From Candidatus Omnitrophota bacterium (GTDB taxonomy: Bacteria > Omnitrophota > Gorgyraeia > 1-14-0-20-64-10), in the NCBI GenBank assembly GCA_023248155.1, contig JAHFFE010000008.1, forward strand, positions 6,515 to 70,514: 64,000 bases of DNA, in the 5' to 3' direction. Positions 22,711 to 63,118 of this stretch are shown here, piece after piece. A program made the position numbers and the translations under genes. A model generated the notes under the pieces. The model was given only the letters and a program-made list of their open reading frames with translations, did no database searches and was not told the origin of the DNA. Numbering within the stretch: the first letter of the stretch is position 1; each line of letters starts with the position of its first letter.

Positions 22711-22791
22711 TCAGAAATAGCATAGAAGATTTTTACACAAAAACCGGTTCACGCATGGCATACTTAAAGTAGGTCAAGGGTAAAAACACCT

Positions 22792-22832
22792 TTCGCGGGG
22801 TCGCACCAGCTCTCCCCGCGGAAGTTTTTATT
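22792..22832 (+). terminator. Rho-independent terminator between the two giant genes.
   Basis: A 9-bp GC-rich stem (TTCGCGGGG...CCCCGCGGAA) with a 13-nt loop is followed by GTTTTTATT. It lies 82 nt after the stop of giant gene 1. Confidence 0.6.
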
Positions 22833-22898
22833 ACCCCTCTTTTTCAAGAGATAAGAACTTTTCGATAAAGCGGTTTAGTTGACCCAAAAGGGGGATTC

Positions 22899-25800
22899 AT
22901 GATCGTTCGCTTTAACCGGAAAACAGGGCAATCTTCCGAAGGAACTCCAGTTCCTGGCGAAGGCGTTTTACTTCCGGTCCAGCGCCCGCGGTTAAGACCG
23001 GTTCTGCGTTCGGTCGCGGCAGTCACGCTGGCGGCCTTCACGATCACTTCCATCGTTCCGTCCGTTTTCGCGCAAACCGTTCATTCGAAAGAAACACTGC
23101 GTCCGGTTCAAGAAGCGGAAGGCAATAATAAAGAAAAGGTTGGCGGCCTTGAAGAACGTCTGCGTGCTTCTGGTTCTGAACCGATTTCGGCTGATCCAGT
23201 ACTACTCACCCCGACTCCTTCAGTTTCAGCAGGCGGCCAAGGTGATGGACTCGCCACCACCACTAATTTCTGGGTTAACCGATCTGGAAGCCCTATTGCC
23301 GGGAAGGAAGAAGATTCCGCGGTCCGCGTTGATCGCCGCACTGCGCTGGCGGCAGGTTTATTGGGTACGGCAGCGGTAGCCACGGCGCTGACAGCGCCTG
23401 TTTCACTGCCGGCCCAGGATGTTACGCCACCTCAACCCAAGGTTGTTGCCGCTGCTCCGAAAGCTGCAGCGAAACCAGCCCCACGCCCTGTTCTTGTGGA
23501 ACAGATCACCAGTAATCTTGTCCAGAATGACAAGGGACAAATACAACTCGAAACCGTTTCTCGAGGGACACGGTCAGACCGGGTGATTGCTCCTCCTACG
23601 AAAGAGTCGCGCCATCCCATGATAGCTGCGGTCCAGGCCGTTAAAGCCACTTTGACCCGCGGTCAGGAGCTGGTCCGCTCGTTTCTCACGGGTCCTTCTG
23701 AAGTGATCCGCTGGTTCGCGGTCAAAAACCACGCGCGGTCGATTATTCCAAAAAATCATCCGAATGTCATTCTCTCTCTCAACGATTTCCGGCCGTTTAT
23801 TGATCAAGGCCCGGAGCGGGTTGCAGTGGTATTAAAAGCAATCGGTGCCGCGGCCAAAGCTCAGGGTTCCAAAGTATCGATCGCGCTGGATATTGGTGCT
23901 TTTGTCGATAACCGGGATTTCAGTGATTTGAAAACGCCGATCAGCGCTAACACCACCCGTGATTATCTGGTTCCATTTGTGACCGAAGCAAAACGGCAGG
24001 ACATCAAAGTGCTTCCTTACAGTTCCGACCGCGGCGTGATGCTGGATATCGGAAGTTACAAGCGCGAATTACAGGATGCCCTGCAAATGGGCTTTGACCG
24101 CGAAGCGATCGTGACCGACTGGGAATGGTGGGCGTCGCCTCCCGGTGTTGAGAATCTATGGGAAACACTAACGCTTAATAAACAGGATGACGCGAAGGCG
24201 CAACTGGCGCTTGAGTGGCTGAAAGCTCATCAGCAACTGCTTACCAGTGTGATTTCAGACAAAGAAATTCCGGTTACCGCCAAGCCCACTCAAATCTACG
24301 CATTGGTGAATCAGGATTTTGCGCAGGTGCTCATCAAGGCATTAGACGGTAAACCGTTGCCGTCACGGTTTCATTTGGTGGTGATGGCCTATAACACGCC
24401 TCGCGGCAAAGAGGCCGAGTTTGTTCAAGCAGCGCAGAAGTCTTCGGCCGACTTGACCGGCCAGAAAGCCAGCGGCTACGCGCTCAATTTTGAAAGGGAT
24501 GCCAGCCCGGATCAATCATTAAACGGTTTGGCTGTTGAAGGAAAAGTTGGTGAAACCGTTCAGCAGATTGCCGCGCAGGCCAAAACCGGCGGTGAACCGC
24601 TCTTTATGCATATTCCGTCGCATCGTGATCTGACCAGTTTAATGGAAACCGGCAAGATGGTGCCGGTGTTACCAGCCGATCAGGTTGAGCTGGCTCAAAC
24701 AACGGCTATTGCCTTGGGTAAGATGGTGCTCGGCGGCACACCCAAATCTCCCGAAATTATTCGCCGTTATTTACCAAGACCGGAAGATACCGCCACGGTG
24801 ACGAACCGAATTGCCGTGGAGCCGGTGACCCATGGTATTGGCTTTGGCACCACCGGTGTTGGTACTGTCGGGGCAGTCGGTCGCAATGTGGAAGCATGGA
24901 TGGGCAAGGGCGTCTGGTGGTTCCTGGATCCAGACACATTTATTTTGGGGCCGGAGGCCGGCTTGACCGTTTCTGCCATGAAAAAAATCGTCGGTACTCT
25001 GGTCAGGGGTGAATTGGAAACCGTCAGCATGGAATTGATCGTGACGCCGCTGGGTGAAGACGGCCGACCGTCGGGTCCGGCATTGCCGCCTATTTCAGTG
25101 ATGGGTGTTCCGGATCCGACCCGCGAACTCAAAGGGGCTCGTTACGACGCGCAATTGCGCGTTAAGCTGCGCCGGCCCGGCGAGCGCCTGGCGCAAAATC
25201 CTGAGAGCTGGCCGCTGATTAATGCCTCGATTGAGGCTGAAGTCGCTTTGGGCTATCCCGGCTACGGCCGCACGCCGCTGACCGTGTCGGAAGCGATCCA
25301 TATTCCTCCAGGGCGTGGCAATGAAACCGCTGAGGTGACGATTCCTCTGGGTGAAATTACTCCGACCATCAGCTTTTTTATTTTGCGCAGCCGCGATAGC
25401 CAGGAAAAAATCACCGGTTGGTATGGCCCCGTAAACCCGATGTATATGTCACAGTTCACCGATTATCTGCTCGACCAGAAATACAAAACGAAATGGGCTC
25501 ATCTGGAGACCGTCTGCGCCGATCCCAATACCAGTGCTCAGCTGTTGGCTGAAGCGACCGAAGAGATGAATCGGATGGGCGGGCATGTGACGGCGCTGCA
25601 GCTGGCGGTCGATCACCGGGGTGATCTGATGGTGCCGGTTTCAGTTGAAGAATACAAAGATGCCGCCTCCATGCGCGCACAATTTCAATCGCTGCGGGAG
25701 CATGGCGTAACCCATATTTCCGTGCGGGTTCCTGAGATCGAACAGAATGCCGATAAATATCTGGTTCAATACGCCGAAAAAGATATTTGGGGTGTCGATT

Positions 25801-28800
25801 ATAATGCGGCCCGGGACATCTTGGGAAGACAGGAACAGCAATTTTTGGAATTAATCCGTATTGCTCATGAAGCCGGGTTGAATGTCGGTTTGCAGCTTGA
25901 TGAAGCCGAGATTGACCGCCTCACCGATCCAAATCAGTCGGTTCGCGCAAAGGAGCGGTTGGAAAAGACCGGCTTGAAAGATCAATCGCACGGATTGGAA
26001 ATCATCCGGCTCATCGTCAAGGCCAACGAAGAGTTCCATTTCCAGCTTGATTTTTTTAACTTGAATCTTAAGAAGGGGTCCGGCGAAAGCCGTGTTCGTG
26101 CGGAGATACAAGCGGCCCGGGAACGGCGCGGCTCTCTGCAGTCCGATATGCAAAAGCTGATGGATATGCTCGATACATTGCTGGTTGAAACCGGAGACCG
26201 TGGTGGCCGTCCCACCGAATGGAACCAATATGCCACCCGTGTTTCAGTCAACAGCGTAACGCCTGATACCGCCCGTGAAATTTTGGAGACAAATCATACG
26301 GGTCTGGTTCAACGAGCCCAGCACCGTTATCCCCAGGCCTTGTTCCTGCAGGGAGGTTCTCTAAACGAAATCATTACCACGCTGAATCAGCGATTTCCGT
26401 CGCTGGTCAATTCTCAGGGTCAGGTCGATCCCCAATTACTGGAGGAGCTGATTCAAAGAATCAGGGTGCCTTCAACCACTGCTTTCCGCGCGGTCTCTGT
26501 TCCGGAAAATCGCATTGCTGAGGTACAACAGTGGGCTTCTACGCTGACCGACGAACAGATTCGCCAGTCTATCCAGAAGAAGGAAGATCGTGTCCGGTTT
26601 TTGCTTGCGGCCAGGGCCTGGGAAATTGGCATGGCTCAGGAACCGGTACTGGCGCGGTATCAAAATCCGATTGATCTGGCCTTTTTGGCAGCCCATGAAA
26701 TTCAGATGAACCGGTTGTTGACCGTCGGAGATACCCATCCGAAAGTAGTGATGCGGTCTTTGCCGACTCAGCAGATTACCGCCAGCGGCCAAGCGGTCAT
26801 TGAAGTGGAAATCAAGAACGAAGGCAATTTGCCGGCTCAATATATGACGATTCTCCATTTAATGGGTGAAACTCCTTCCGGGCGCCCTGCATGGCCGTTG
26901 GATGAGCCCCGTTTGGAGCGGTTTACGAAGGAAGTTATTTTAAAACCGGGCGAATCCCAGCGCGTACGGTTTGTCGTTGATGGAAATATCTTGCGCCAGG
27001 AAGGGCATGTCAACTTCCGCGTGCTGGCGCGCGATGTGAACACGCTCTTGCACAAGCCGGGCCAGGGCCTTGATATGGAAGAAGATGAAGAAGCGTTCGC
27101 CCGCGCCGAAGGAACTTTATATGTCACTCTGCCGCAGCGGTTGAAAGCGATCCCGGACCAAGCCCAGCGCGATGAAGCGATACTTGAAAATTCTTTCCAT
27201 GGGCTTCGACGGAGATTTGAGCGCGCGGAGGCACTGCGCCGCGAGCGGACCGGAGAATCATTTAATGATGCTGCCTATGCCCAGGGATACGGGGAGCGTT
27301 ATATGGAGTATATGGCCGTTTTTGCTCCGTATTACACAATGGGGATCAGAAAGGAAGGGACGGGATCCGGAACAATTCTTCGTTTGACATTCCAGCGCAC
27401 GGCCCAAACGCTTCAGGAACATTTGGAAGATGTGCGATCGGAGCAGCGGCAGCAATTGGAAACAATCGCTTTGCTTCCCGATCAGTCAGAACTTGCTACG
27501 GCCCGATGGCTGCGCAAAGGGCTCGAATATGGCATGAAAGCCGGTTTGGTGGCGTTGGCGATTGCGGCATTCAGAAATGTTCGCAGTTCCGCGCGTCGCG
27601 GGTATGAGGGTGCTGCTTTGGAGCAGTCGTTAAGTACAGGGGGTCTCGGGGATGGAACTCCCGTAGGCCGTTTCAGCCAATTTTTGGACATGAACACCGA
27701 ATGGTCCCATCGCGTTGAAGGAATGGGCGCACGCTGGACTCAGGATAGGGCTGGAAATCATCCGGAACAGGGGAAGGTGGCTCGCGCGATGCGCGCGACC
27801 GGCCGGTTTGTGATCGGCCTTCGCGATGATATTCAGGATCAAGCCATGCCGATCGTATCTCGTCAGCAAAGCCGTTTGGAGTGGATTCAGAAAATAGCTC
27901 CTAAGGTGGTTACCGGTGCTTTAGTCGTCATCGGTTCATTGGCGGCGTTGGGAGCCATCACGCTTCCCGCGGCCGGTATCGCGCTGGCTGTTCTTGTGGC
28001 CGCGGTTGTTCTGCTGGCGGTTCCGGTGATTGGACCCGTTCTTCAGCGGCTTATCTCGGTACTCTTTTTCCTTCCGCTTGATTTGGCCGCATGGGCTCCA
28101 GCTAATGGAGCGCTTCTCATACTGGGCCCGATTATTTTCTTCGCGATGGCTGCCATTGGCTTGTCCTTGATCGGCACCTTGTTGGGTGTCGCTGTAACCG
28201 TATTCTCCTGGCAGAGTATTGCAGTGGTTGCGTTAATATGGGCCGCGTTATGGCTCTACGATGGCGTTGGCCGAAGTCCTTACAGCGCGATCAGCTTTAC
28301 CTGGAGGATTGTGGGTGCTTTGGGAATCGGCGCCGTCGCGGCCGTCGTTGTTTTTGCGCTGACTTATATAATCTCGAACGCTTTGTTGTTCTGGTTTTTA
28401 GTCGGCGTTGTTTTCTTTTGGGCGGTTCGGGCTACCCATATTTTTACTTCCAGTCCGGCTCCGTTAATGGCCTATGCCGAATGGGTCTCTTCTTATCGGT
28501 TCCTGGTTCGGTGGGCAATTACCGGCCTGGTTATTTATGCCGGTGTTATGCTGGCGGCCGCCGCTTCGACGGTCATTATGCCGATATTACTAGGCGCGGT
28601 TCCGGTAACGGGTATTGCCGCTTTAGCAACTTCCGGTTTGGGTGTCATCAGCCTGTTGGTGATCGGAACGGTTTTACTGACCTATCTTCTGGGGTCGCAT
28701 TATCAACTTTATGGAACAGTTCCGTTCTTACGCAACCATCCCATTTTATTGTGGACGGCTCGTGTCGCGACAGCCGCGGCGCTGGCGGCAGCGATACCGT

Positions 28801-31800
28801 GGCTGTTGGGAGCGGTTCCGGCATTCTTTGCCTCGATGTTGCCGGCGTTTATGGCCGGGTTATTGTTGCCGGTTACTCCAACGGTCGGGACCTATGTGAT
28901 GGGTCTGGTTATTTTCGGCCGCGCGGCCGGATTAATCTGGAGAGGAATTGATTACGCGACTTTCAGCCGGCCGGCCAACCAGCCGATCAGTGTTACGATT
29001 TTACGCGCGTTGTTCCATGCCGTGGTGCTGGGTGTGGGTGCTGCCATGCTGCTCCCGCTGGGGCTTTTGGCCATCAAGGGAATCAGCATTGCCGGTGCCG
29101 GCTGGATTGTTTTCTGGTTGATGATCGTTCCTAGCGCGGCGCTCATCCTTGCGGCCCTTTGGGATTGGTCTGCCACGCCCCGTTATTGGCTGCAGGAGCA
29201 ATTTGAGCGGGAACGGGTTCAGCAAGCGCAACTGATCGGCGCGATTCAGGTCTTCGAAGGATCCGGCGCACAGCGGGTTTCTGCGGCTAATCTGCATCAG
29301 ATGGCTTTACCGCAACTGCGCGCGGAGTTTGCAACCATGGCCGCTCAGCCGGGGCAAAATCTTTCTGCCTCGGATCGTACCCGTTTGCTTTCCCGATTCC
29401 GTCTGCGCCAGTCGCCCGACCAGCTTCCGCTGGTGAATCCGGATCTGGTTGTTTTGCAGGCCGCCTGGGCCGATGCTGTAGCGGCTACGCATATTGACTG
29501 GCATCACGGCGTGCCGCAGCTTCCTTCATTTATTTCCGGAAATCAGGCCCCCACGCAGATTCAGCAGATGATTCAGCTGACGCCGGACCAACAGCGGGTA
29601 TTGAACTGGTATTATTGGCGGCATTTGGCCGAACGCGATGCCGATACCGAAGTGCGCCGGCTCAGCACCGAGCAAGGATCCGTCGTCGGATTGGCCGATC
29701 TGTCACTGGCCGATCAGGAACTGGCTGTGACGCCCTACTTCAACTGGTATATGAACCGATTCAAAGATACTATTCTTAACCAGGATGAAGGAACCACTCT
29801 GCGTACTTTGGGCGGCTTTTTGTGGACCTCTGATTTGCAGCATTTGGTTGGCCGGTTCCGCCAGGATGACAGTTTGGCAGTGGTTATGCCCGCGCTTATT
29901 TTGAGTTTGGAATACGCGATGGACGGTCCCTCGGTCATCGGCGGCGCGCAGATCCGTAACGCCAACAGAAATTATGGAGTATTCGGCGTGGTTGTTGTGA
30001 CCGTGGTGATGTGGGCCCAGGTCGCGTTGATGAACATTGCTGTTCCGCTGGGTTTTATCGCTTCGATGGTGAACCGATGGGGCCGGTCAAAGGTTCAGGG
30101 CGGCAATGTGCTGCATACGCTGCGTGCTTCCGCGGACGCCGGCATGGAAGGTTATCAAAAAGCGTTCTGGTATGTAATTTTAGTGCTGGGCCGCTGGCTG
30201 CAGGGTCTGCTCTTTACCTTGATGGAAGTGTATCTGGGCCGATGGGTCGGCCGGCGCGATCTTGAAGAGTATCAGGCCACCCGTGTTTTTGAAGGATCGG
30301 CTGATGGCGATGGAACACTCTCGAACCGGGTTCGTACACTTCTGCATGAAAACACACTTAATTCACTGGTCGAGGCGCATTACGCCGGTTTGATTGGCGA
30401 AGACAACTCACTATTCGATATGGGTCGGTTCGCGTTTCCTTCTCAAATGCGAAATGTTCCCTGGCAATTAAGAGGGGATGGTCCCGGCATTCAGGATGCC
30501 GAAGCGTTTGGTGACCGTTCCAACAACCAGCAACTGCCCGGTACCATTGAATGGCGTACCGAGGGCGGTATTGGCGGCGGACATGCCCGCGTGGCGGTCC
30601 GTTTTGAAATTATCGACAGCATCGATTTATCCGGCGCCGGATTAGAGGAAAGTAAAGTAGGTACCCAATCAAAACTGGTTTTGGAGCGGCTGGCTGACGG
30701 TACCGTTCGTATCCGTAAACAGGGTGAATCCCTGCGATATCTGGTCCGCTTAAATAAGGATCAGAAAGCGTCGCTGGATCAGCGGTTGGCGCAGAACAGC
30801 AATAACTGGAAAGCTACGGCCCGCTTTTTTGAAACCGAAAGAGATGCCGCCATTGATCAACTAAAAGCGCGGCAACGAGAGGTTAGGAATCTGGAAAGGG
30901 CAGGCGCTCCTGATATTCAAATCAGAATTGCCAAAGATGCGGTAGAAGCAGCTAACAAACAAGTGAAATTTGTCTCGCCTATTGCGGACGGTCTTATTTC
31001 GGAGAACGGCCGGTATCTCTATGCTTTTCAAGATGGATCTGTGACGCGTGTTTTTGTAAATGGACAAGATCAGGAAACGCTATTGACGAAAAACCGGCAA
31101 CGCCGACTTTCCACCGAGCCGGGTAAAGTCTATGTTCAAGCACCCACCGGACGCACCAAGGGTGAAAATGCCGGTGCTGGCCTTGCGTATGCCATCGGTT
31201 TGGTGGAGCCGCGCCTGCAATTAACGCGGGACGGCAATTCCTACCGCGTCAATCTGCCGTTTAGAACGATGGAGGAGGAGCTTTTCCCGGAATTGGGCGA
31301 GGCGCGGCATGAAATCCAGGATCATGGGGATCGCCAGCACGGCGTGCGCGCTCATCAGGGTGTTGAAGCGGCACGGGTTTTAAATCAGGAAAACGATGAG
31401 CGTCTGCGCAGGCATCGCGGCATCGAGTCGTCGATTTCCGCGCTTCCTCAAGGTGAGTTTGGGCATCACCAGGTGCGCGACCGTATCGGGCAACGCGGGC
31501 AATGGCTTTTAAACGCCGCGGCTACATTGCTGCGTTGGGAGCGCGATCGTGATCTTGATGAAAACAATTACCGGTCTGGGTTAAATCCGCTTCGCTGGAG
31601 TTTTAAGAAAATCGCGTTGTTAATCGTCCAGGTAGCAGCTTTCAGTGCCGTGCTTTGGCTGGTTTTGAACGGTATGGTTGCTTTAACCTCTCTTCAGGTG
31701 ATTGCCGGGGTATTGTTTGGCATCACGTTGCTGGCTACCCAGTTTAACTGGTGGTGGACGCTCAAAATTATTGCTGGTTTCACGGCGCTTTATTTCGCAT

Positions 31801-34800
31801 GGCCCTGGGGATTGGCAATGGCGATTACCGGGCCTACCTTTGCCGCCTTTTTGTGGGGCTACATCAAGCCGATCTCATTTATCGGAAATGTTCAGCATAA
31901 TCGTATTCAGGGTATGCGCGGGCATTACCAATCTGAGATGATCGAGTCGGCATTTGACCGGCTTGAAGCACGGATAGGCTTGGCGCAGATGGGCCCGGTG
32001 CTGGATGCTTCTCAACAGCAGTACGACGCTCAACTGCGTGACGGTTTGGCGCTGATCCAGCAGACCCCGGCACTGCAGACTTTGGCTGAACTCTATCACC
32101 GCGTGATTGGTCCGGAAGAGCTGACTGTTCAGCGGCCCTGGTGGAATCTACTGCGGTATATTCCAATCCCAGGATTTCCACGGCGCCCGATAACCAATAT
32201 ACCGTTTCTGCGGGGCGTAATGCAGGTGGAGCCCACTTTGCGGCGGGTTATCCGGCAGGTAGAAACAGGGCCTTCTGCAGGGCAGGAAGAGTCGGGCGGC
32301 CCAGGTAGTCGTACCGCGGCTCTTGCCGATATCGAACGGCTTTTGGTTCGCGAGATGCGCGATTTTTCGCCGGCTCAGCGGCGCGCTGTTTTTGAAGCGC
32401 TTCGCTGGAACACTGCGTTGCAATTCGCGGCGATTGGCAACCGGGCTATTTCCGATCAATATTCCCGCAGCCGTGATCCGGAAGTAACGCGCATGGGCGA
32501 TGTTAACTCACAGTTCGGCGTGGAAGGGCAGGATCGTTTAACCCGGTTGCAGGCCCAGCAGCAGTTACTGAACGGCCAGTTAATTCAAACGGCCTATCCA
32601 TTTGCGGGCAACCGCTCCTGGACGCGCAGTTCCGACGCGGCCATTTATGGCGGTATTCCGGCACCCTCTTTGACCTACAGTGGCTCATCCAATAATCTGT
32701 TGAATGCGCTGGCACGGGGCGCCCAAAATGGCGGTTTTATTATTGAACGAATGGCAATCAATTCGACGGCCAATGGGGATGTTCTTTATATCGATTCCGC
32801 TCTCTTGGCTAATGATTACGGAAATACAAGCGGCATTGACAAAGGCCGCGGCCTTTTAATTCTGGTCCATGAGGCGGGGCTTATTACCGACGAACAGTAT
32901 GAAACAATGTCCAGCCGTTTGAGCGATATTCAGTTTCAAGGCGGGAATGTGGGTGCCGCGCTTAACACATTTTTAAGAAATGGTTCTGATTTAGCGGGAA
33001 TTGTGGTGGTCGGCACTACCTGGACCTATAATCGCGACAGAGCAACCCAGTGGAAGCCGGAATTAAAGGTCTCCGGTGATTTTAAATATACAGCCCCGTC
33101 TGCCGGTGCAACAGAGCAGCAGAAGCAGGAACAGAAGATCAAAGACGAAGCAGCCCTCAATGAGATTTTTGATAAAGCGTCTCAATCAATTCGCCGGATT
33201 AATCCGCTGCGGGCCGCACTGGATCAGAAATCGGCCGGTCAGACGCTGTCCAATTATCTTCTGGAGAACACCTCGCTTCAGCCCGATCTTGAAGTTTTGC
33301 AGTCTGATTTGAACGCGCAGAGTGAAGAGCTGAATTCAGTAATCAACACCGAGATTTCCGCAGAACAGCTTAATCAATACTATGATGACCGGCAGGCGCG
33401 CGAGGGCGACCGGGAAGTTTTTCGGATCACAGCGCAGAATGTGAATTGGCGGGCGATCGGTTTTTCGGGCAATACGCTGCAGGAAGCGCTGGCCGAATTG
33501 CGGCAATCGATCGCGCACGATGGGACGATTTCTTTGACGCCGCGCCGCAATCTGCTGACCTGGGCAATGGATCTGTTTAATTTGCGAAATCAATCGTACA
33601 GCCGTGAAGTGGTACTGCTGCAGTTGTTGTTTGGCGCCAACCAAGATCAGCTGTTGATGCGCGGCGGCCGCGTGGTTGGTTTGCGCTGGAGCAACCTCGA
33701 CAGCCATTTTGATGCCTCGCAATGGCAGTTTGCCGTCGGACCGTATCTCTGGCCCGGCAGCACGATGGGACGCGTCGCTCTCTGGATGCGGCGCGGCAGA
33801 ATGCATCAGGCGCCGCCGATTCCATTTTTGGAAGCGGTCCGGTTGCTGGAAATGTCTCCCAACGCGGCGGTGGCTTCCGGCTTTAACCGGCTTCCGACCG
33901 ATGCGTTCAGTTTGCCTCAGTTGCTGACCGAGGACGGCCGGCATGGATCGCTGAACCGGTTAACACCGACGCTGAACCCGACGATGAACGCCTGGAATAT
34001 GCACAAAATTCCGTTTATGCAGCTTCAACTGTTGCTGCGCAAAGGGGACAAATCGACCCAGCGTGCCGTGCAATATTTTGCCGGTCTGGCGATTGAACAG
34101 TCATTTCAGCATTTGTTTGATCATCCGTTATTTGCCGGCGTTCACCCCGATTATTTAAATCATCTCTCCAATACGATGAGACAAACATTCGGTTTGCAGG
34201 CAGTCTTGCGCGATGAAGTTTCCACGGCCGGCGCGCATGGCGCCGGAACATTCTCTTACGGTCTGACCGGCTATACCGGCTCCCGCCTCTCCGGTATTCG
34301 GGTGGGGCCGTATCCGCCGGGGCATGTGGCGGCCTACTGGATTTATCGCGAATATCAGGCGCTTGACGAACAGTGGAATGGTTTATTTAATGCAACCACC
34401 CGCCAGCTGCAGCGCGAGGCTGTTTTTGCGCGTACCAACAGTCCGGTTCCGCCCGATTCCTCCGCCGATAGTGTCCCGTTGATTTATCAGGGAGATGTGG
34501 TGGATCCATGGACTGTCTTGGCAACGGCCGGGGCTCAAATCGAACAGACTCGGCGTGCTTCGCGCAGCCCGCATACGCCGGCTGAGAATCCGTTGTTGCT
34601 GGGTCCGTTGGTCAGTCCTGAAGGCCGTTCGAATGCCATTGAAGAAGCCGCGCGACAAGTCAGAGCATCGCTGGCGCAGCCGGTAACCGCGGCGACGGTT
34701 GGAACAATTCGTCTGGCTGAAGAACCGCCGCCAGCTCCTGTGGTTCCGATGACGGGTACTCTTCCGTCGGAATCCGGCCTGGAAGAGCAGACAGCCGTCC

Positions 34801-35396: not shown

Positions 35397-35564
35397 AAAG
35401 AATTTTTCCTCAAAAAATTTTCCATCCGGTTTTTCTCGCCAGTTGTTTGCTTTCACGCTATAATAAATAAACAAGAACCTGACCCTCATCTCGTCGGCCA
35501 GGAGTACAATCGGCTGCCGGGGTGGGGGAATTTCTTCCGGCGCTTTTAAAACAGATTGCGATTG

Positions 35565-39932: not shown

Positions 39933-40085
39933 AGTCAGATAATTTTTTAATGATATTTTTGAGGCAAAAGCCATCGGTCTATGGCATACTTACACTAGAG
40001 CGATTGAATAAAAAGTTTCGTGGCGGAAGAACGGGTTTCGCCGCGAGATTTTTATTTAGCTCCCTTTTTTCAAAGATCAAAATAG

Positions 40086-43000: not shown

Positions 43001-44315
43001 CAACGGTGAGCCGCGGCTCCGGTTAGGCCGTGTTACGGTGAATCAGGTGAATCCCTCTACCGATTTTGATCGGGGCAACGGACGGGCTGTTATCCATCTG
43101 GATGGGTATGAGTTGGTGAGGCGTCCGGCGCAGTTTGCTCCGGGGTTGCTATCGAGTTTGGCGGAAGCGTGGAATCCCCAGCTGGTTCCGGAAGAAAAAG
43201 TAGAAGATCGAAAAATGGTGGTTGGTTATTATGTGCGGGTTGTCGAAATTGGTGATGACGGCGTCGAACGGAAAAGAGTGGTGGGGGTCCTTCCGGCGGA
43301 AATGTCATGGACTCAGGGGGGACGATTGTCTGAGAAAATGTCATTACCCAATCAAAATCCGAATTCATTCCCCAATTATCTTAAAGAAGTTGCTCCAAGG
43401 CACTACGGGTGGATTACGCCGATTGACAGCTTGTTGTCTGATCCGGCGACTGGCGAGCCGCTGGTTTTCAGAAAGGAAGGCAATGAGTTTGTCTATTTGA
43501 GAGTTCGTCTTTATCAGCGGGACCTGGCTGACGGCACCATTGAAGACGAGCTTGGTTTTGATGAAGAGCCGGTGGTTGTTCCGGAGGAGGAAGAAGAAAA
43601 TCTACAACTGCCGGTGCCGGTCGCGCCGCCGGTTAACCCGGCTCCTCAACAACCGAATGCTGCCGCGCCTGTTTTACCGCTGCCGGAGCCGGCTGTCCGC
43701 GAGGTGAAACTGCTTCTGACTCAGCTTCCGTCCGGCGATTTTGCCGTCCATACCTATGCAGGAACCTATCGGATGGATGGCTTATCCATCGGGCAGGCCC
43801 CTAGCAATGCTTTTGATGAATGGCTGGCAAACCACTCCTCTGACGGGGCTCTTCTTGCGAAAGAGCCGTTGAATTTGCTTCCGATCGAGCTGTCATCCAA
43901 CGAACAGATTTTTATTGAAAGCGGATTGATGGCGGAAGCAGACCGAGTTGCTTTGTCGCGGCAATTGGCGATGTCCGGCATCACCAATGTCAACATTCAT
44001 TGGGTCGGCAGCAACCAGGATGAGGTTAGCGCTGTCTCCGATACCGTTCTCGCGCTTCGCCAGACTGGAACGCCGGTTGTGATGATGGTCAGCCCGGCGT
44101 ACCAAGGTGCGCTCGAACGGATGTTTGGTATCGGGGGTATTCATAAAGAACTTCGGCCGACGATCGGTATTGTGAGCGGCCTTGCCAATACAAGGGTTGT
44201 TTTGATGGCGTTGTTGACCAATATGGCGTTTCTTTCCCGCTTAACGGTTTTTGACGGTGTTTCATCCGGTCTTGAAGAGAACGCCACGGCGTCTGTTTTC
44301 CAATTCATGGCGTAA
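40086..44315 (+). CDS. Large secreted/anchored coiled-coil protein, paralog B (1,409 aa). Signal peptide, TM anchor, Pro-rich spacer, conserved N-module, shared-type C-terminus.
   Basis: ATG at 40086 gives MKKIRFRQTIAIGLLMAFSVSSVTPGGAAV (signal). A hydrophobic anchor WPLVVASLLAVSFLFPSLIG follows. There is a Pro-rich stretch, PPPPITQRVARKLRVPPPIPDRPLPPIPE. The N-module WDDYKAAIDAWFDAQQDELEARV...IGVALPFP is paralogous to the genes at 35565 and 46417. A long coiled-coil region is present. Confidence 0.8.
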   Translation: MKKIRFRQTIAIGLLMAFSVSSVTPGGAAVSSSRADTLRALNVSEADNSGLEESLKRPDFLASAEPSVRPASLPGAQTNPPQRRRWPLVVASLLAVSFLFPSLIGPEKKDQNPKVQPPPPITQRVARKLRVPPPIPDRPLPPIPEIDKEDAPLRDLQAGILEILARFSEPGGVLRQQERDRTEKLFDKGAVGKNQELFANFNTLRDRVFVRQAAAIRILEEYITGDEKTRNNLWDDYKAAIDAWFDAQQDELEARVDLTSYLLDQARSLHAKGVIGEQDLIKKEVAHDSARLMVREFSLYRRFFVNLRKIGVALPFPKTQLPAAGGNFVPQLVPPIPNGEPSLSVLEKQEILLESYDLIQELLTLYQDRLRQGQKIRIDHLRRIVALREKKVATQIELDRAHFLNQQAALMEIQIRRLEDQRQFVEAYKILVTTEGLDQLPLKYLNHPLVRRATGEIALELGYAKSAGEALEFDPSIILSVIGDLNPIRTLIFLNAQQDLTTAVLKEADGLVETLQLPEGAGSRMGLVAYTGAVLRSSLVANRRLPNTITIREILTQQHQYDQAKLQQEAGQLVRQQILLRIKLGLPVGDVESTLSPEGRRTLEFSSNGVLQPGSLKDFDETDDLTPEIGQDNRARLLEIGQLVRTAFGTRDRLTPLQIRQSSDELLDAEQRLMAVRIRSLARQKELNSVLTAQVREGVKTGALNKRELADAEAWEEQSRVGDAESARLLVDLLSRKQLSREQLAQLLDVAPSKLAGRIPAGAKEVIERLNGPDWFAPAAVIGPENLDEYPLWRAEHNRLVNDERQILRDAQASRTTELSKRLDQEKALVKTRTSTLQSEEAAQHDLTQGGMQLNLLGRSREMDEWLRDHGIDLPSPIDPRPAGLPTIDDLRNGLRGRNLPLQPEAPFYVAIPGQADSKALSAGFYAPDAVVFLSGPPKTSPDHIRAPVFGVDDWNVLKEFFTGASITDSNANGEPRLRLGRVTVNQVNPSTDFDRGNGRAVIHLDGYELVRRPAQFAPGLLSSLAEAWNPQLVPEEKVEDRKMVVGYYVRVVEIGDDGVERKRVVGVLPAEMSWTQGGRLSEKMSLPNQNPNSFPNYLKEVAPRHYGWITPIDSLLSDPATGEPLVFRKEGNEFVYLRVRLYQRDLADGTIEDELGFDEEPVVVPEEEEENLQLPVPVAPPVNPAPQQPNAAAPVLPLPEPAVREVKLLLTQLPSGDFAVHTYAGTYRMDGLSIGQAPSNAFDEWLANHSSDGALLAKEPLNLLPIELSSNEQIFIESGLMAEADRVALSRQLAMSGITNVNIHWVGSNQDEVSAVSDTVLALRQTGTPVVMMVSPAYQGALERMFGIGGIHKELRPTIGIVSGLANTRVVLMALLTNMAFLSRLTVFDGVSSGLEENATASVFQFMA

Positions 44316-44325
44316 ACGCGCTAAA

Positions 44326-46401: not shown

Positions 46402-46416
46402 TGTGGTGATAATCCT

Positions 46417-49400
46417 ATGAAAAAACAATCAGTTTTTTATCCTCGAAAAGTAATCGCTTTTTTTATTTTTTTGGTATTTCTTTCAACCAGCGTCGGAGTC
46501 AACCCATCGTCCAAAAATTTCCCGGATGTTTCGCCTGACGCGCTGCGAGCCGTTAGCGGCGCGGAGTCGGCGGCTCAGCCGGGACTTGAAGAGTCTCTGA
46601 AAGAATCCGCCGGCCTATCTCGCAGCGGATGGTCGCTTAATTGGCTGGCCGGTATTACATTTGCGTTAACGGCAGCGTTGGATTGGGGCGAACCGGTGGC
46701 TGCCCAACAGGCGCAGCCGTCCCCGTTCGTAGCGACCCTCGATAATTTTCCGTCCGGCCCGGAATACAGTCGTTCCTCTGAAACCTTGAACCGTTATTTG
46801 AAAACCCTGGTGCCGGAACTGCCAGGGCCGGTCATTCTGACGCCGGGCGCCACGGTCCGTATCATCGCTATTCATGAGACTAAAGACCAAACAGGAGAAA
46901 TCGACGGCGCCTATGTGACGCTGACGCCTTCGAAGGAAACGATTGTGGTGCGCGCCGGTGACAACCGCTGGCTGGTTCCCGCCGGTGTTTCGTTAAAAGT
47001 CCATATCGACCGCAGGAAAAAAGAAACGCGCGTTTACCGTGAATCGGAAGTCACACGGCTGGCGGTTGAATTATCTGACATTGCCGGGCTTTCTGATCTG
47101 ATGGACCGTTTTGATGTGGAGGGGCCGGTCGTTGGCGCAACGCGGTTTAAATCCAGCGGAAAACTGGTGATGGGAGGAATTATTTATCGCGACGGGGGCG
47201 TTCGCCATTGGAATATTGTGCCGATTGATCCGGGATCTTCCGTTACGGTGATCGCGCCCGATGGCACGGAATCGACGGTGCCGGCCTTAAAACCGTTGCG
47301 TTTGATTATTCAAGACGGACAAGCGCGCATTGATCCGAAACAGCAATACAGTTCGGTGCGAAAGCCGGCATTTTTGCCGCCGGCGGTAACAGGCCGCTTC
47401 GATGCGGTGCCGGTGGTCGAAAACCCGAGCCCGATCGTCCGATCGAGCCGTGCTGCTCAGCCGGTTCCGGCTGCTTCGGTCCGCCGTTTCATTCCGCCGA
47501 AATTGGATCCGGAACTTCCGAAAATTCCGGAGCTGCAACTGGTAGCGGCGATTCCATCCAGTGTGACGGCCCGGCCGGCCGCAGATTCTCAATTCACGGA
47601 CTCTCGCAAAAAAGAGCCGGCTCCAATGCCGATGCCGGCCGATCTGCCGCGGACGGCTCCGGTCATAGCAGCAGACCGCGTCCGTGTCCGGCAAAATCCG
47701 CGCAATCCGGATCTGTCTCCGAATGTTGGACGGAACGATTCGGGTCCCGGCCCGTCCTCTCCGGATATTGCCGTGAAAGATAGAACACCGGTTCCTCCAG
47801 CAGAGGCATCGCCGGTTGCGTTGGCTCCAATTGCAGCGGGGGAGGCTCCCGTTCGCCGTGTTGCACCGGTTCCTCCTGTGGATCTCCCGGTTCCGCCACC
47901 CTCCGTCGTAGCCGGTGGTAATTCTCTGGTCCGTTTGGATCGTTTGCCGCGCGAGCCGGCGGTTTCACCGGTGCCCGCTCGCTCGATTCCAGAAAGTGAG
48001 TTATTTTCGGAGAGTCTTAATTTCGCGGATCGATCGCCGGTGATTGACGCTCCTCAGCCACATCCGAAATTGGCCGAACCGCCGGTAGGTGTCGTTAATA
48101 CCACACGTCGCCGAGCCCCGGCGTCAAAGCCGGCGGAAGAGTTAATCTCTCCGGTGCCATTGTCAGAGCCACTTTCAGCGGAATCGACTGTTGAATTACG
48201 CAAGATTGAAGGGGATATCCTTAACAGCATGGCGCGATTACACCAGTGGGCCGTCGATGCTCTCAACAATCATGCGGCCCGCGTGGCCGAACAGCGGCAA
48301 AAGAAAGCAGGCACCCCGGCGGATAGAAACATTGCCGATTTCAACACGCTGAAAGCCGATGTCGATGCGGCAATGGGACGTGTTATTCTTGTCCTGCGCG
48401 ATTATGTCAGGGCCGATGGCCCGGCGCGCGCCGGTTTTTGGAACCGGTATCAACAGGCAGTCCAGAATTGGTTTGACGCGCGCGAGCGGCAGGTTGGCGC
48501 TTATCTGGAACTGGCCGATGATTTATTACAGCGCGATCGTCAGTCGGCTTCCAACCAAGGCAATACCAGCACGCGTGACCTAGAGCGGTCGCAGGCTGCC
48601 AGCGAAATTGCCGGATTCACGCTTCTGGAATTAACCGCCTTCCGTAATCTGTACGACGACCTCATTGAGCTGGGTGTTCCGGTTCCGTTCCTGAACGCGG
48701 CTATGCCCGATGAAATTGGTTACACGCCCTATTCCGTTCCGGTCATTCCCAGTTTGCAAAAGCCGGCAGCCGCGGCCGACCGTGCCCGTTTTTTAGAGAA
48801 GGCCTTCAATCAAATCGCCGAAATTTTACGGCTGAACAGTCAAAAACTGGGTGTTGATATCCGATTGCGTCTATCGGAATACCAGCGGTTTAAAAACAAT
48901 TTCTATTCCACTCCGCGGGGAGGCACGTTACCTCAAGGCACGAGCAGGGAAGAGATGAACTATGCCAGTTTTCTCAGGGATGAGGCGATTTTTCAGCGGG
49001 CCCAACAGCAGCGCCTTTCGGCTCAAATCAATTTTGTTGAAGCATTACAAGTTTTGTCGCAGACGCAGGGGCAGCCGTTTTTGCCGGCTGACAATGAACA
49101 GGTGCGTGCGGTTGTGGCCAACTATGCCGTTGAACATGGATACCCTCCTGACATTGGTCAGGAGGTGGTTATTTCGGTGGTTGGTTTAAGAACGGTGCGC
49201 GACACGATCTTTATCTCCGCCCAGGAACGGCTTTCGCGGGCGATCTCGGATGAAATGGCGGCGCGGGTTGTTCTGTCTCAAAAATTAATCGTCTACCTCC
49301 AGGATGACTTCAAACGGATGGTTCATGCCAACCTACGTGTTCCCGGCGCCTACCCTGCCTGGGACATTTTCGTTGCCGAATATAAACTCCGGCAGGCTCG

Positions 49401-51615: not shown

Positions 51616-51668
51616 TCGTTTGTTTAAAGTGCGTTTAGTCCTTGTTTTTGAGATAAAATAGTAATGGA

Positions 51669-54122: not shown

Positions 54123-55315
54123 ACAAGCAGTCATTGCGCAATGACATGTTCTTCGTTCTCGTTTTATGCTTAATGCTGTGCGCCACCCCTGTTTTTGCCG
54201 CCGAGGTCTCCGTTAGAGACGTCCCGGCATTCCCGGAGGGTACCGCCATTCTTCCGATTGAACAACCGCGCATGCAGCGCGGCCGGTTTGGCGCCTATGC
54301 GATGAGTCCCTCAAAAATGGGTATTTTCCCGGACTTCAAAATAGCAAAACGGCCGGGGTCGTCGGTGGAACCGATGTATGTCCGCTTTCGCAAAGAACCG
54401 GGGCCCTCTTTTTGCGGTTCTTACTGGATTATTGCCGGCGATTTGCGCAAATACGCCACGCTGACCTTCTGGATCCGCGGCGAGCGCGGCGGCGAGAATT
54501 TTGAAATCGGCCTCAATGACTTAATCGCCAGCCGCCGCGAAGATGCGATCATGGGAGGCTCCATTTACCGGTATCTTCCGGGCGGCATCACCAAAGAATG
54601 GCAGCAGGTGAAAATTCCGCTCGAAGATTTTTTCGGCGCCGATTTTTCCCGCATACACAGCCTTGTTTTTTCGTTCTCTGATCCGGGGGAGGGAGCGCTC
54701 TGGATCGACGGCTTTGTTTTCCATGAAGAAGCGCTGGTCCAGCGGGAGGACGAAATCATCCGATCGGGCGAACTGCTGCTGGACAACTTCGACCACAGTG
54801 ATTTGAACCTGCTGGGCCGCAAAACCAACGCTTACAAAAAAACACCGTCGTTTTGCGCGGCCAGCCGTGTTGAGAAACCGCGCCGTGGAAACCAGGGCCG
54901 CTCGTTGCGCCTCGATTATGATAAGCAGTCGACCGGGTGGGCCGGTTATTTTTCGCTGTTTAACCAGATTGACGGCGCTTATTACGATTTAAGCCAATTT
55001 AAGGAGATCCGTTTCTGGGTCCGCGGCGCGCGCGGTAAGGAGGTTTTTGATGTCGGCATGGCCGACCGTTCCTGGTTGACTATTGGTGATTCGGTCAAAT
55101 GTGGTACAATAGATAAATACTTAAAAAAAGGCGTCACAAAAGATTGGCAGGAAGTAGTAATTCCGTTTAAAGATTTTGGCAAATTAGATTGGTCACAAAT
55201 GGGTTCTTTTGTGGTAAATTTCTCTAGGCCGGCAAAAGGAACCCTTTTTGTGGATGATGTCCGGGTGATTCGGAAATCGGACGAAGAACTGCTGAAGGAG
55301 TGGGATAAACAATGA
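54119..55315 (+). CDS. Secreted protein with two tandem beta-sandwich (CBM-like) modules (398 aa).
   Basis: There is an ATGA overlap with the upstream stop. The signal peptide is MNKQSLRNDMFFVLVLCLMLCATPVFAAEV. There are two copies of the FW(I/V)RG..G.E.F.IG(L/M).D ... YL..G.TK.WQ.V.IP motif (CGSYWIIAG...FWIRGERGGENFEIGLND and WAGYFSLFN...FWVRGARGKEVFDVGMAD). Confidence 0.75.
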   Translation: MNKQSLRNDMFFVLVLCLMLCATPVFAAEVSVRDVPAFPEGTAILPIEQPRMQRGRFGAYAMSPSKMGIFPDFKIAKRPGSSVEPMYVRFRKEPGPSFCGSYWIIAGDLRKYATLTFWIRGERGGENFEIGLNDLIASRREDAIMGGSIYRYLPGGITKEWQQVKIPLEDFFGADFSRIHSLVFSFSDPGEGALWIDGFVFHEEALVQREDEIIRSGELLLDNFDHSDLNLLGRKTNAYKKTPSFCAASRVEKPRRGNQGRSLRLDYDKQSTGWAGYFSLFNQIDGAYYDLSQFKEIRFWVRGARGKEVFDVGMADRSWLTIGDSVKCGTIDKYLKKGVTKDWQEVVIPFKDFGKLDWSQMGSFVVNFSRPAKGTLFVDDVRVIRKSDEELLKEWDKQ

Positions 55316-55923
55316 AAATAAAGCGGGTCCTGGTTTTGGTTCTGGTTCTTTTTTTTCTGTCGGGACCTCTTCGCGCGTCGGCCGACTCCGTTTTGGTGGA
55401 TGATTTCGAGCAGGAAGCGGCTAATAAGGTAGGCGGGCGCACCAACAGCTATGTGATGGCGCCCTCGCGCGTGCTGGCGCTGCGCGTCACCGAGAACGCG
55501 CACGGCGGCAAAAAAGCGCTGGTGCTCAAATACGATAAGAAGGGCACCGGCGGTCCGTACGATTCCGGCGGGTGGTGTGGTTATTACACCATGCTGAAAG
55601 TCGGTTCGCGTTATTACGACGCTTCCGGCGCGAAAGCGATTTCGTTCTGGGTGCGCGGCGACCGGGAAGACGAAAATTTCGTGATTGGCCTTTCCGACAA
55701 ACATTGGGATGAGCTGGGTGATTCGGTCAAATCAGAGCCGGTGGTGCAGTATCTTCCGGCCGGAAAGATCACCAAAGAGTGGCAGAAAGCGACGGTTCCG
55801 CTCAGCGCGTTTATGCTGGAAGCCAAGGAACTGGCCTCGATCGCGATCTGTTTTGAAGGATCGATTTATCCCGGCGGTGAATCGCGGGGAACGGTGTACA
55901 TCGACGACTTGATGTTGGAGTAG
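55312..55923 (+). CDS. Secreted single beta-sandwich (CBM-like) module protein (203 aa).
   Basis: There is an ATGA overlap with the upstream gene. The signal peptide is MKIKRVLVLVLVLFFLSGPLRASA. GGWCGYYTMLKVGSRYYDASGAKAISFWVRGDREDENFVIGLSDKHWDELGDSVKSE...YLPAGKITKEWQKATVPLSAF is a clear paralog of the next gene. Confidence 0.8.
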   Translation: MKIKRVLVLVLVLFFLSGPLRASADSVLVDDFEQEAANKVGGRTNSYVMAPSRVLALRVTENAHGGKKALVLKYDKKGTGGPYDSGGWCGYYTMLKVGSRYYDASGAKAISFWVRGDREDENFVIGLSDKHWDELGDSVKSEPVVQYLPAGKITKEWQKATVPLSAFMLEAKELASIAICFEGSIYPGGESRGTVYIDDLMLE

Positions 55924-55966
55924 GGGTTATGGCATATTTAGAGTGGGTCAAGAGGAGGGAACTAAA

Positions 55967-59725: not shown

Positions 59726-59754
59726 TTGACCCTGTTTCCTTGGAGTGATAAAAT
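59726..59754 (+). promoter_or_regulatory. sigma70-type promoter for nagB (TTGACC, 17 nt, TAAAAT).
   Basis: TTGACC lies at 59726-59731. A 17-nt spacer follows, then TAAAAT at 59749-59754. This sits ~58 nt upstream of the nagB ATG, and an AGGAGG RBS is at 59796-59801. Confidence 0.55.
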
Positions 59755-59811
59755 AGCCTTTCTCTCGTAACAACATCTTTGAATTACACATAACAGGAGG
59801 AGTATTTTCCA

Positions 59812-62548: not shown

Positions 62549-62558
62549 TTCAAATGTC

Positions 62559-62621
62559 ATCCCCGCGAAAGCGGGGATCTCATAGGCGGGGATGGCGAAA
62601 GCTGTCCCCGCCTTTTTCTTT
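62559..62621 (+). terminator. Tandem-hairpin rho-independent terminator after the 649-aa gene.
   Basis: ATCCCCGC-GAAA-GCGGGGAT is a perfect 8-bp stem with a GNRA loop. GGCGGGGA-TGGCGAAAGCTG-TCCCCGCC is a second stem, followed by TTTTTCTTT. The gene's stop is at 62546-62548. Confidence 0.7.
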
Positions 62622-63118
62622 CCACTTACTTAAGTTAGCGAGTCGGCCCGGCTCGGTTGTTCGGGAGCCCAAAGGGGTGTTGCTCCCGCATCGTTCGTCT
62701 CGCTCCACCGTGCTCGCCTCACTCCGGGTATCGCCCTCACTCGTCCCGCCAAAGAACTCTGGCGGGACACCATGGCCGTTCGGGCTCTTCACGGTGCGGA
62801 GAGCAAACCCCTTCGTGGCTCTCACTCTAACTCAACGGTTGTATGACTAAGAGGCGGGCCGGGATATGGGGCAAGTGGACCTTGGCGGAGGCCGAATCGA
62901 ATTGTTCTTCGGCAAGGCCGGAGACAGAGCGACGGAATTGGGTGGCAATTCCTAGCGTGTCCACGGCTCCCATACCCGGCCTGACTCGAAACACGCCTTG
63001 CCTGACGGAAGCGTGAACGCAGAGAGGCAACACCCCTTTGCGGCGATCAAGCAAGATTGAATTGGTGGACTGACTCGATAATTAGGAGAGAGTTTTAGTG
63101 TTGCAAGCAGTGCAGGTG

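Follow-up and report, generated by a model that had tools for sequence, protein, structure and literature searches.

We analyzed a window of 64 kb (64,000 nucleotides [nt] of contig JAHFFE010000008.1) from a Candidatus Omnitrophota bacterium, in which a 12-nt box recurs in intergenic spacers and punctuates a cluster of giant secreted-protein genes, designated O1 to O10 here. On balance, this box is probably the core of a sigma-70-type extended −10 promoter (TGg-CATAyT), a reading drawn from its variation across related loci.

The pattern ATGGCATAYTTA had three exact matches in the window, at 22755, 39981, and 55929, each of them intergenic and on the + strand, and was matched in 0 of 100 dinucleotide shuffles of the window. 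Copy 1 (ATGGCATACTTA, 22755-22766) lies in the O1|O2 spacer (188 nt), copy 2 (ATGGCATACTTA, 39981-39992) in the O3|O4 spacer (153 nt), and copy 3 (ATGGCATATTTA, 55929-55940) in the O9|O10 spacer (43 nt). Copies 1 and 2 end in ACTTA and copy 3 in ATTTA, and each is on the same strand as the gene that follows, with 132 nt (O2), 93 nt (O4), or 26 nt (O10) between the end of the box and the ATG. The coordinates, strand, and intergenic placement of the three 12-mers had been reported in an earlier note on this DNA and were confirmed here, as was the partial similarity of the flanks of copies 1 and 3 (AAGTAGGTCAAGGG versus GAGTGGGTCAAGAGG). Copy 3 retains the box and approximately 20 nt after it, being 79% identical to copy 1 over 33 nt, and then runs straight into the O10 ribosome-binding site.

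The earlier note had also judged this recurrence to be far beyond chance, which holds within intergenic DNA and is overstated for the window as a whole. Repeated 12-mers are commonplace window-wide (498 present at least twice, versus ~215 in shuffles), and we estimated that some 30 triples of two exact 12-mers and one with a single mismatch are expected by chance across the window, such that the raw argument from three 12-mers is weak. Within shuffled spacers, however, such a triple arose in 0.1% of 2,000 shuffles, giving a chance probability of about 0.001 when the intergenic DNA (1.7 kb) alone is considered; the significance of the triple thus comes from all three copies falling within 1,696 nt of intergenic DNA. 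When up to two mismatches were allowed, 9 sites were found versus 4.7 ± 2.1 expected, an unclear enrichment in which the additional sites were scattered and mostly in coding DNA. TGN[TC]ATA[ACT]T had four matches on the + strand of the window, three of them in the intergenic 2.6% of the DNA.

Nine natural instances of the box were available for comparison: copies 1 and 2 and the sites in loci L068 and L090 (all ATGGCATACTTA), the site in L159 (GTGGCATACTTC), copy 3 (ATGGCATATTTA), and the sites in L003, L004, and L160 (GTGGCATGTTTA). These varied only at −16 (A/G), −9 (A/G), −8 (C/T), and −5 (A/C), while T−15, G−14, G−13, C−12, A−11, T−10, T−7, and T−6 never changed; the hexamers were CATACT, CATATT, and CATGTT, each with TGG ahead of it (9/9). 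An extended −10 promoter of the sigma-70 type needs TG at −15/−14, A−11, and T−7 and is most tolerant at −9 and −8, and a T followed by a purine is the usual context of a start site. Such a T(−1)/purine(+1) step was located 7 nt past T−7 in copies 1, 2, and 3 and in L068 and L159. Other promoters of the clade appeared to be of the TGnTAnAAT style, specifically TGGTATAAT, found three times in L069 and L070 at 35-45 nt ahead of an ATG, TTGACG-18-TGGTAAAAAT in L005, TTGACG-N-TGTTATACA in L007, and TTGACC-17-(TGa)TAAAAT in another spacer of the window (59726-59755). Since the invariant positions are those required, the variable ones those tolerated, the start-site step is in place, and the clade uses promoters of this style, the comparative evidence favors a promoter among the options raised in the earlier note (extended −10, operator, or leader or processing element); an operator overlapping the box is possible, and a processing element does not fit copy 3 or L090.

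The box has much in common with Escherichia coli galP1 and the TRTGnTATAAT promoters of Gram-positive bacteria, namely TG, A−11, T−7, a dispensable −35, and a pyrimidine/purine start 7 nt on. It differs from them in having C−12 and invariant G−13 and T−6, in that two copies precede the terminator of the prior gene, and in that its activity is predicted. A sigma-54 promoter (TGGCAC-N5-TTGCW) was ruled out, the GC at −12, ten bases past the GG of TGGCA, being absent and replaced by GT (copy 1), CT (copy 2), GT (copy 3), or TT (L090).

Promoter-like strings other than the box were also noted. The 10-mer GATAAAATAG was present in two other spacers, at 51652-51661 and at 59747-59756, where it belongs to the TTGACC-17-(TGa)TAAAAT given above; the TAAAAT at 51652 ends 10 nt before the O7 ATG, where L160 keeps GATAAAAT, and a promoter at this place would give a nearly leaderless O7 messenger RNA (mRNA). 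Within O8, TGTGGTACAAT (55100-55110) is a near-perfect extended −10 string approximately 200 nt upstream of the O9 start that is conserved in L003 and L004, and may represent either an internal promoter or simply part of the coding sequence.

Copies 1 and 2 of the box belong to a larger intergenic module on the + strand. Module 1 (O1|O2, 22711-22860) comprises an A/T-rich stretch with CAAAAACC, the box, a hairpin, a U-tract, and CTTTTTCAAGAGAT, and module 2 (O3|O4) spans 39933-40085 with its core at 39955-40085. The two spacers align throughout, which the earlier note overlooked, with a local score of 37 versus 16 ± 2 in shuffles (maximum 27), and still score 30 after masking of the 12-mer. 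Over ~150 nt, both have the order stop codon, AGTCAGA, A/T-rich stretch with CAAAAnCC, 8-10 nt, box, 23-25 nt, GC-rich hairpin, TTTTTATT(T)A, CYCTTTTTTCAARAGAT, and start codon, the box being placed 44-48 nt past the upstream stop codon. A profile hidden Markov model of the module (nhmmer) found only these two full copies and none further in the window or the related loci. In Rfam searches, no family reached gathering score across the whole window, and permissive E-values (E ≤ 10) brought up nothing but noise for the two modules, the L090 region, and a 570-nt spacer described below. The modules share with REP/BIME and Neisseria Correia elements a repeated intergenic unit of ~150 nt that combines a strong hairpin with a promoter-like box; unlike those elements, they occur in two full copies and in orthologous position in three lineages, and are not scattered. 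A mobile repeat of the MITE (miniature inverted-repeat transposable element) or REP-like kind was ruled out, there being no terminal inverted repeats or target-site duplication and the terminator arms being the sole inverted repeats. Uptake sequences of the DUS/USS type have a high genome-wide density of about one per kb on both strands, and a DNA uptake sequence was likewise ruled out, with three copies in 64 kb on one strand only.

The hairpin of module 1 (22778-22836, + strand) has a GC core at 22790-22800/22814-22824 and extended arms at 22778-22800/22814-22836, with the U-tract TTTTTATTA (22825-22833) inside the extended 3′ arm. That of module 2 (40016-40058, + strand) has arms at 40016-40028/40036-40048, a loop at 40029-40035, and the U-tract TTTTTATTTA at 40049-40058. 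The stems are of 11-13 bp, with a folding free energy (dG) of about −29 kcal/mol and z of about −5 in both copies, and the U-tract follows directly; the strong hairpin and U-tract that the earlier note had described after copy 1 (dG of about −29 kcal/mol, z = −5) are thus real, and it had missed their counterparts after copy 2. Each has the full set of features of an intrinsic (Rho-independent) terminator (GC-rich stem-loop, U-tract, and upstream gene on the same strand) and resembles the unambiguous terminators behind the DUF4954 gene. A simple terminator scanner did not pick up the module terminators, and its limits on stem and loop probably explain why they escaped.

A covariance check across homologous loci, comprising four sequences (copies 1 and 2, L068, and L159), revealed that stem pairing is kept through compensatory changes. 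Specifically, 10 pairs were intact in every sequence (100%), two changes being compensatory and three one-sided, and sliding of the partner columns lowered the pairing to 38-70%, which argues from sequence that the hairpin is under selection. The U-tract persists even in L159, which has lost the upstream A-tract. Lying downstream of both O1 and O3, the hairpins should end the transcripts of these genes. The O4 ATG is 27 nt past the end of the U-tract and opens a signal peptide conserved in three lineages. A promoter between terminator and O4 was ruled out, the −10-like TATTTA and TATTTG lacking T at −7 and no −35 being available; without a usable −10 in this interval, every O4 transcript, whatever its start, must cross the hairpin, which is thereby part of the O4 leader. 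The attenuator proposed in the earlier note for copy 1 is therefore reasonable and extends to copy 2. However, both the minimum-energy and the centroid folds of the short leader contained the terminator only, with no alternative antiterminator structure, which makes a classical RNA-switch attenuator unlikely. The hairpin could serve in constitutive partial termination, in protein-dependent antitermination, or in 5′ stabilization of very long mRNAs. A small hairpin around the box itself (UGGC..GUCA) was dismissed, as it is not kept in copy 2 or in the orthologues of copy 3.

The same layout was seen with a canonical −10 in the O2|O3 spacer (35436-35528, + strand), where TCGCCA-17-TATAAT (35436-35464) is followed 18 nt on by a hairpin (~35483-35528) and then a U-rich tail, AATTTCTTCC. 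In L068 (9860-9975), this box and the outer stem CCCTCA...TGAGGG are kept and the inner stem is changed, suggesting covariation of the hairpin between the window and L068. The O2|O3 spacer of L159 is 16 nt only and lacks the whole layout.

Related loci were reached through the C-terminal 1,000 residues of O3, which had five matches among 1.84 billion representative proteins, leading to L068, L069, L070, and L159. In L068, a Logan contig, the O3 orthologue is 68% identical and the O3|O4 spacer keeps the box exactly and the stem as well, with a different loop. The core of module 2 is 91% identical to L068, versus 69-84% for the adjoining coding DNA, and from box to hairpin the two do not differ. 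In L159, a JGI contig with an O3 orthologue of 56% identity, the module is recognizable, with 74% identity over the whole spacer, GTGGCATACTTC as the box, and the TAG, stem, and U-tract kept. The longest invariant block in the four-way alignment of modules 1 and 2, L068, and L159 was the box, TGGCATACTT. The copy-3 site is GTGGCATGTTTA in three close relatives (L003, L004, and L160), whose flanks vary and whose upstream spacer is 2 nt shorter; the constant core is therefore TGGCATnnTT and not the full 12-mer.

Pattern scans, which combined the box with a forced part of its partly conserved flank, extended the search further. A 23-letter pattern had 32 matches in GTDB genomes (596 Gb), of which only L090 and perhaps L074 look meaningful, and 56 matches in JGI metagenomes that appeared random save for L141, while a 17-letter pattern had 60 random-looking matches in viral contigs; the extended motif is thus not a widespread element. 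L090 (JBAZQO010000003.1, Candidatus Omnitrophota) contains ATGGCATACTTA as TTGAAA-17-(TGG)CATACT in a divergent spacer, so that the box there cannot be an element of a 3′ untranslated region, and L141 matches L090 in flanking sequence. In L074, from Lentisphaerae, the box ends 47 nt upstream of the ATG of a signal-peptide gene. A separate observation in L090 was a unit of ~100 nt after the promoter-like site (3085-3210), with GGA and GGAACAAG repeats abundant in its single-stranded 5′ part, AAGGAGGG, and a clean terminator at its end. It has a fold z of −3.7 and no Rfam match, and looks like a small RNA, reminiscent by analogy of GGA-repeat protein-sponge RNAs.

As a promoter, the box would be laid out as T−15 G−14 G−13, the hexamer C−12 A−11 T−10 A/G−9 C/T−8 T−7, and then T−6 A/C−5, with transcription predicted to start 7 nt on, at a purine after T. 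For copy 1 (TG at 22756-22757, G, and CATACT at 22759-22764), the predicted start is the A at ~22771; for copy 2 (TG at 39982-39983, CATACT at 39985-39990), the A at 39997; and for copy 3 (CATATT at 55933-55938), the G at 55945, ahead of the O10 ribosome-binding site GGAGGG (55954-55959) and ATG (55967). Copy 3 also has a −35-like TTGATG (55909-55914, + strand) 18 nt upstream of its hexamer, within the 3′ end of O9; its relatives have TTAATG with a 16-nt spacer, and as they differ in both hexamer and spacing this element is probably not essential. The three boxes would restart transcription in the one-directional cluster, for O2, for the O4-O9 block, and for O10 onward. In modules 1 and 2, the intrinsic terminator of the upstream gene would then lie inside the 5′ leader of the downstream gene, 19 nt from predicted start to GC stem and 7-10 nt to the A/U-extended stem. 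The default product would be an RNA of ~60 nt, with O2 and O4 expression depending on read-through, and the hairpin might act as a constitutive or factor-controlled attenuator or as a 5′ stem-loop that stabilizes a very long mRNA.

Several observations weigh against this promoter reading. The invariance of C−12, G−13, and T−6, which a housekeeping promoter does not need, points to ancestry or to some further constraint, for example from a special sigma factor or an operator that overlaps the box. No −35 precedes the hexamer of copies 1 and 2 by 16-18 nt; TTTACA, TTGAGG, and TTGACG, situated 20-21 nt from CATACT, were rejected as too far for sigma-70, and a spacer of 17-18 nt would make the −10 TGGCAT, without A−11. 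With a strong terminator immediately behind it, a promoter would yield mainly the ~60-nt RNA, and the leader has no antiterminator fold. L007, a family-level relative, lacks the copy-3 box at its orthologous site, and the L090 and L074 matches could be due to chance (32 in 596 Gb, one of them in Omnitrophota, with a partly forced flank). Finally, the case is wholly comparative: from the sequence features, conservation, and geometry observed, we infer promoter activity, start sites, termination, and any regulation of read-through, and the 5′ and 3′ ends are predictions.

The invariant positions would be explained if an alternative or group-2 sigma factor (−10 GGCATAYTTA), or a cluster-specific operator over the −10 region, co-regulated the three units, a reading that overlaps with the sigma-70 promoter and that we consider rather unlikely. 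It draws on the constancy of G−13, C−12, and T−6, positions not required by sigma-70, across the nine instances and on the same departure from the TGnTAnAAT of the clade each time. Moreover, GGCATACTTAA fits 9 of the 11 positions of KCTAYRCTTAA, the −10 consensus of E. coli sigma-S (Weber et al. 2005, as quoted in PMC5650638), an analogy only. In this comparison, the ATACTTAA part matches, including C−8 and the TAA after the hexamer (9/11 in copy 1), whereas the sigma-S hallmark C−13/T−12 is G/C in the box and RpoS is a proteobacterial factor, leaving no more than a resemblance. Against such specific recognition, no DNA-binding protein or sigma factor gene was identified among the scanned open reading frames (ORFs) of the window, the box lies outside any conserved inverted or direct repeat (the GCCAT...ATGGC of copy 2 is lost in L068), and module ancestry could account for the extra invariant positions. 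Alternatively, the box could be read as a leader mini-ORF, [A/G]TG GCA TAY TTN NNN TAG (MAYLK, MAYLH, MAYLQ, MAYFR), that would exert ribosome-mediated attenuation on read-through transcripts. All instances begin with ATG or GTG, all four module copies have an in-frame TAG at codon 6 with codon 5 variable, the C/T difference falls at the third position of the Tyr codon, and in copy 3 a GGAG precedes the ATG of the frame by 8 nt and the frame runs for 13 codons to an ATGA overlap with the O10 start, which would allow translational coupling. However, no Shine-Dalgarno sequence precedes the start codon in copies 1 and 2, L068, or L159, and the GCA wobble position never changes and other Leu codons are unused, such that the constraint looks to be on nucleotides and not on a peptide. 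The copy-3 orthologues, further, alter both frame and length (MACLFAG*, MACLFVV*) and replace Tyr with Cys, the stop is ~20 nt ahead of the GC stem with no alternative fold for a ribosome to switch, and the TAG is equally explained as T(−1) A(+1) G(+2) of the start site. We regard the mini-ORF as improbable but possible.

An action of the box as RNA, in which it would bind a protein or direct processing in the 3′ tail of the upstream giant gene, in concert with the terminator, so that the 3′ end is defined or stabilized while downstream genes are expressed by read-through only, is unlikely. It would fit the position of copies 1 and 2 (44-48 nt past a stop codon, with a canonical terminator 23-25 nt further on), the identity of copy 2 and L068 from box to hairpin, and the differences between copies 1 and 3, almost all of which are transitions over the 33 nt from the box. 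In contrast, copy 3 has no hairpin and is 26 nt before a start codon, the L090 box has no same-strand gene upstream, the UGGC..GUCA hairpin is not conserved, no Rfam family was matched, and the ends of the proteins encoded upstream (O1, O3, and O9) show no relationship. That the repeats are functionless spacer inherited by duplication or gene conversion of paralogues, or a small repeat element, is highly unlikely. O3, O4, and O6 are paralogous, O2 and O4 have a common N-terminal leader, just two full modules exist in 64 kb, and L007 has no copy-3 box, all as neutral inheritance would have it; yet the spacer (core 91% identical to L068, whole 74% to L159) outdoes the adjacent coding DNA (proteins 68% and 56%), the hairpin has compensatory changes, the genes flanking copies 1, 2, and 3 cannot be aligned at the nucleotide level while the box is identical, and terminal inverted repeats and target duplications are absent. 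A more elaborate form of the promoter reading, to which we assign a low probability, is a gate for processive antitermination, in which the box promoter would fire constitutively into the terminator to give the abortive ~60-nt RNA and only a polymerase modified in or close to the box would cross and go on to transcribe 12-16 kb without terminating early. A factor of the Q-like, RfaH/LoaP-like, or another kind could be the modifier, and its loading might take place at a sigma-dependent pause on the −10-like TAAAAA or ATAAAA stretch, which starts 13-15 nt past the predicted start; no NusG paralogue was noticed in the window, although this was not tested further. As in leader attenuators and in phage lambda PR′-tR′ with Q, the modules place a promoter closely before an intrinsic terminator, such that the long transcript needs read-through. 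Unlike in those systems, the leader before the stem is of ~7-19 nt, no antiterminator fold, known RNA family, or antiterminator protein was identified, and the hairpin also serves the upstream gene. With ops/RfaH and LoaP-type elements the box shares its shortness (12 nt) and its same-strand position before unusually long transcription units, but its sequence is unrelated to GGCGGTAGnnTG of ops, and ops sits in the transcribed leader well past the promoter.

All ORFs of annotated size are on the + strand from position 1 to 62.5 kb. O1 (>7,500 codons) leaves the window at its 5′ end and ends at 22710, O2 (22899-35396, 4,165 amino acids) starts after a ribosome-binding site, GGGGGA, and O3 occupies 35565-39932. 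The ATG of O4 (40086-44315), at 40086, has no Shine-Dalgarno sequence. These are followed by O5, O6, and then the CBM9/CBM11/CBM30-domain genes O7 to O10. An adjacent DUF4954 protein has its best named relatives in Candidatus Omnitrophica (61-66% identity). ENA assembly ERZ27280021 and an NCBI contig contain this stretch of DNA as well. O3, O4, and O6 are paralogues and the ends of O1, O3, and O9 bear no relation to one another, while O2, O4, and O10 are unrelated save for a short signal-peptide/GLEE leader common to O2 and O4. No homologue of O4 but itself was found among 5.8 billion proteins, a scan of GTDB genomes with O4 was also empty, and the O2 N-terminus had no matches as a protein query.

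Additional observations concerned these large proteins. The N-termini of O2 (22899-23170), O4 (40086-40260), and O6 (46417-46600) have in common a signal peptide and then xLRxx...E...(S)G[LM]EE.L, more weakly seen in O3 and O5, with 32% identity over 53 amino acids between O2 and O4. SGLEE or GLEE recurs near the C-termini of O2 (residue 3960), O3 (1312 and 1434), O4 (1395), and O5 (577), and twice in O1; this common motif could be a sorting or processing signal. The first ~190 nt of O4 (40086-40275, signal peptide to GLEE) are 78% identical to L068 (14459-14650) and the next ~110 nt ~35% identical with indels, forming an abrupt conserved-to-hypervariable boundary inside the protein. L160 and L068 both come from Logan SRR22388058, and relative to the window the CBM genes O7-O9 are at least 90% identical and O3 only 68%. 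If the two contigs are from one organism, this suggests that the large secreted proteins evolve much faster, or exchange more, than the CBM genes. Finally, a GC-rich non-coding stretch of 570 nt lies between convergent genes at 62549-63118, with two terminator-like hairpins at its start. Its sole Rfam match was a sub-threshold one to FtrB (31 bits versus 66 needed, E = 0.005), and it is absent, together with an adjacent ORF of 166 amino acids, from the syntenic site in L007 and L005.

The box is thus a real and largely ordinary regulatory element, a new example in Omnitrophota of known kinds of signal, and what is unusual is a conserved design, read from sequence, in which two of the three copies would place a promoter just ahead of the terminator of the preceding gene. 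Omnitrophota are an uncultivated phylum noted for giant genes, and a preprint on these genes leaves promoters, terminators, operons, and intergenic regions unmentioned. To our knowledge, nothing is experimentally known of transcription signals in the phylum. The locus offers a testable promoter box, predicted start sites, and a conserved spacer, with promoter before terminator, as a marker of operon boundaries between genes of 4-22 kb. Should the hairpin gate expression, it would show how cells limit or license the transcription of extremely long mRNAs, and an antitermination gate, if true, would mean that Omnitrophota have a transcription-control device dedicated to their giant genes. If the hairpin is no gate, the TGn-extended −10 boxes and canonical intrinsic terminators still help to define transcription units in these genomes.

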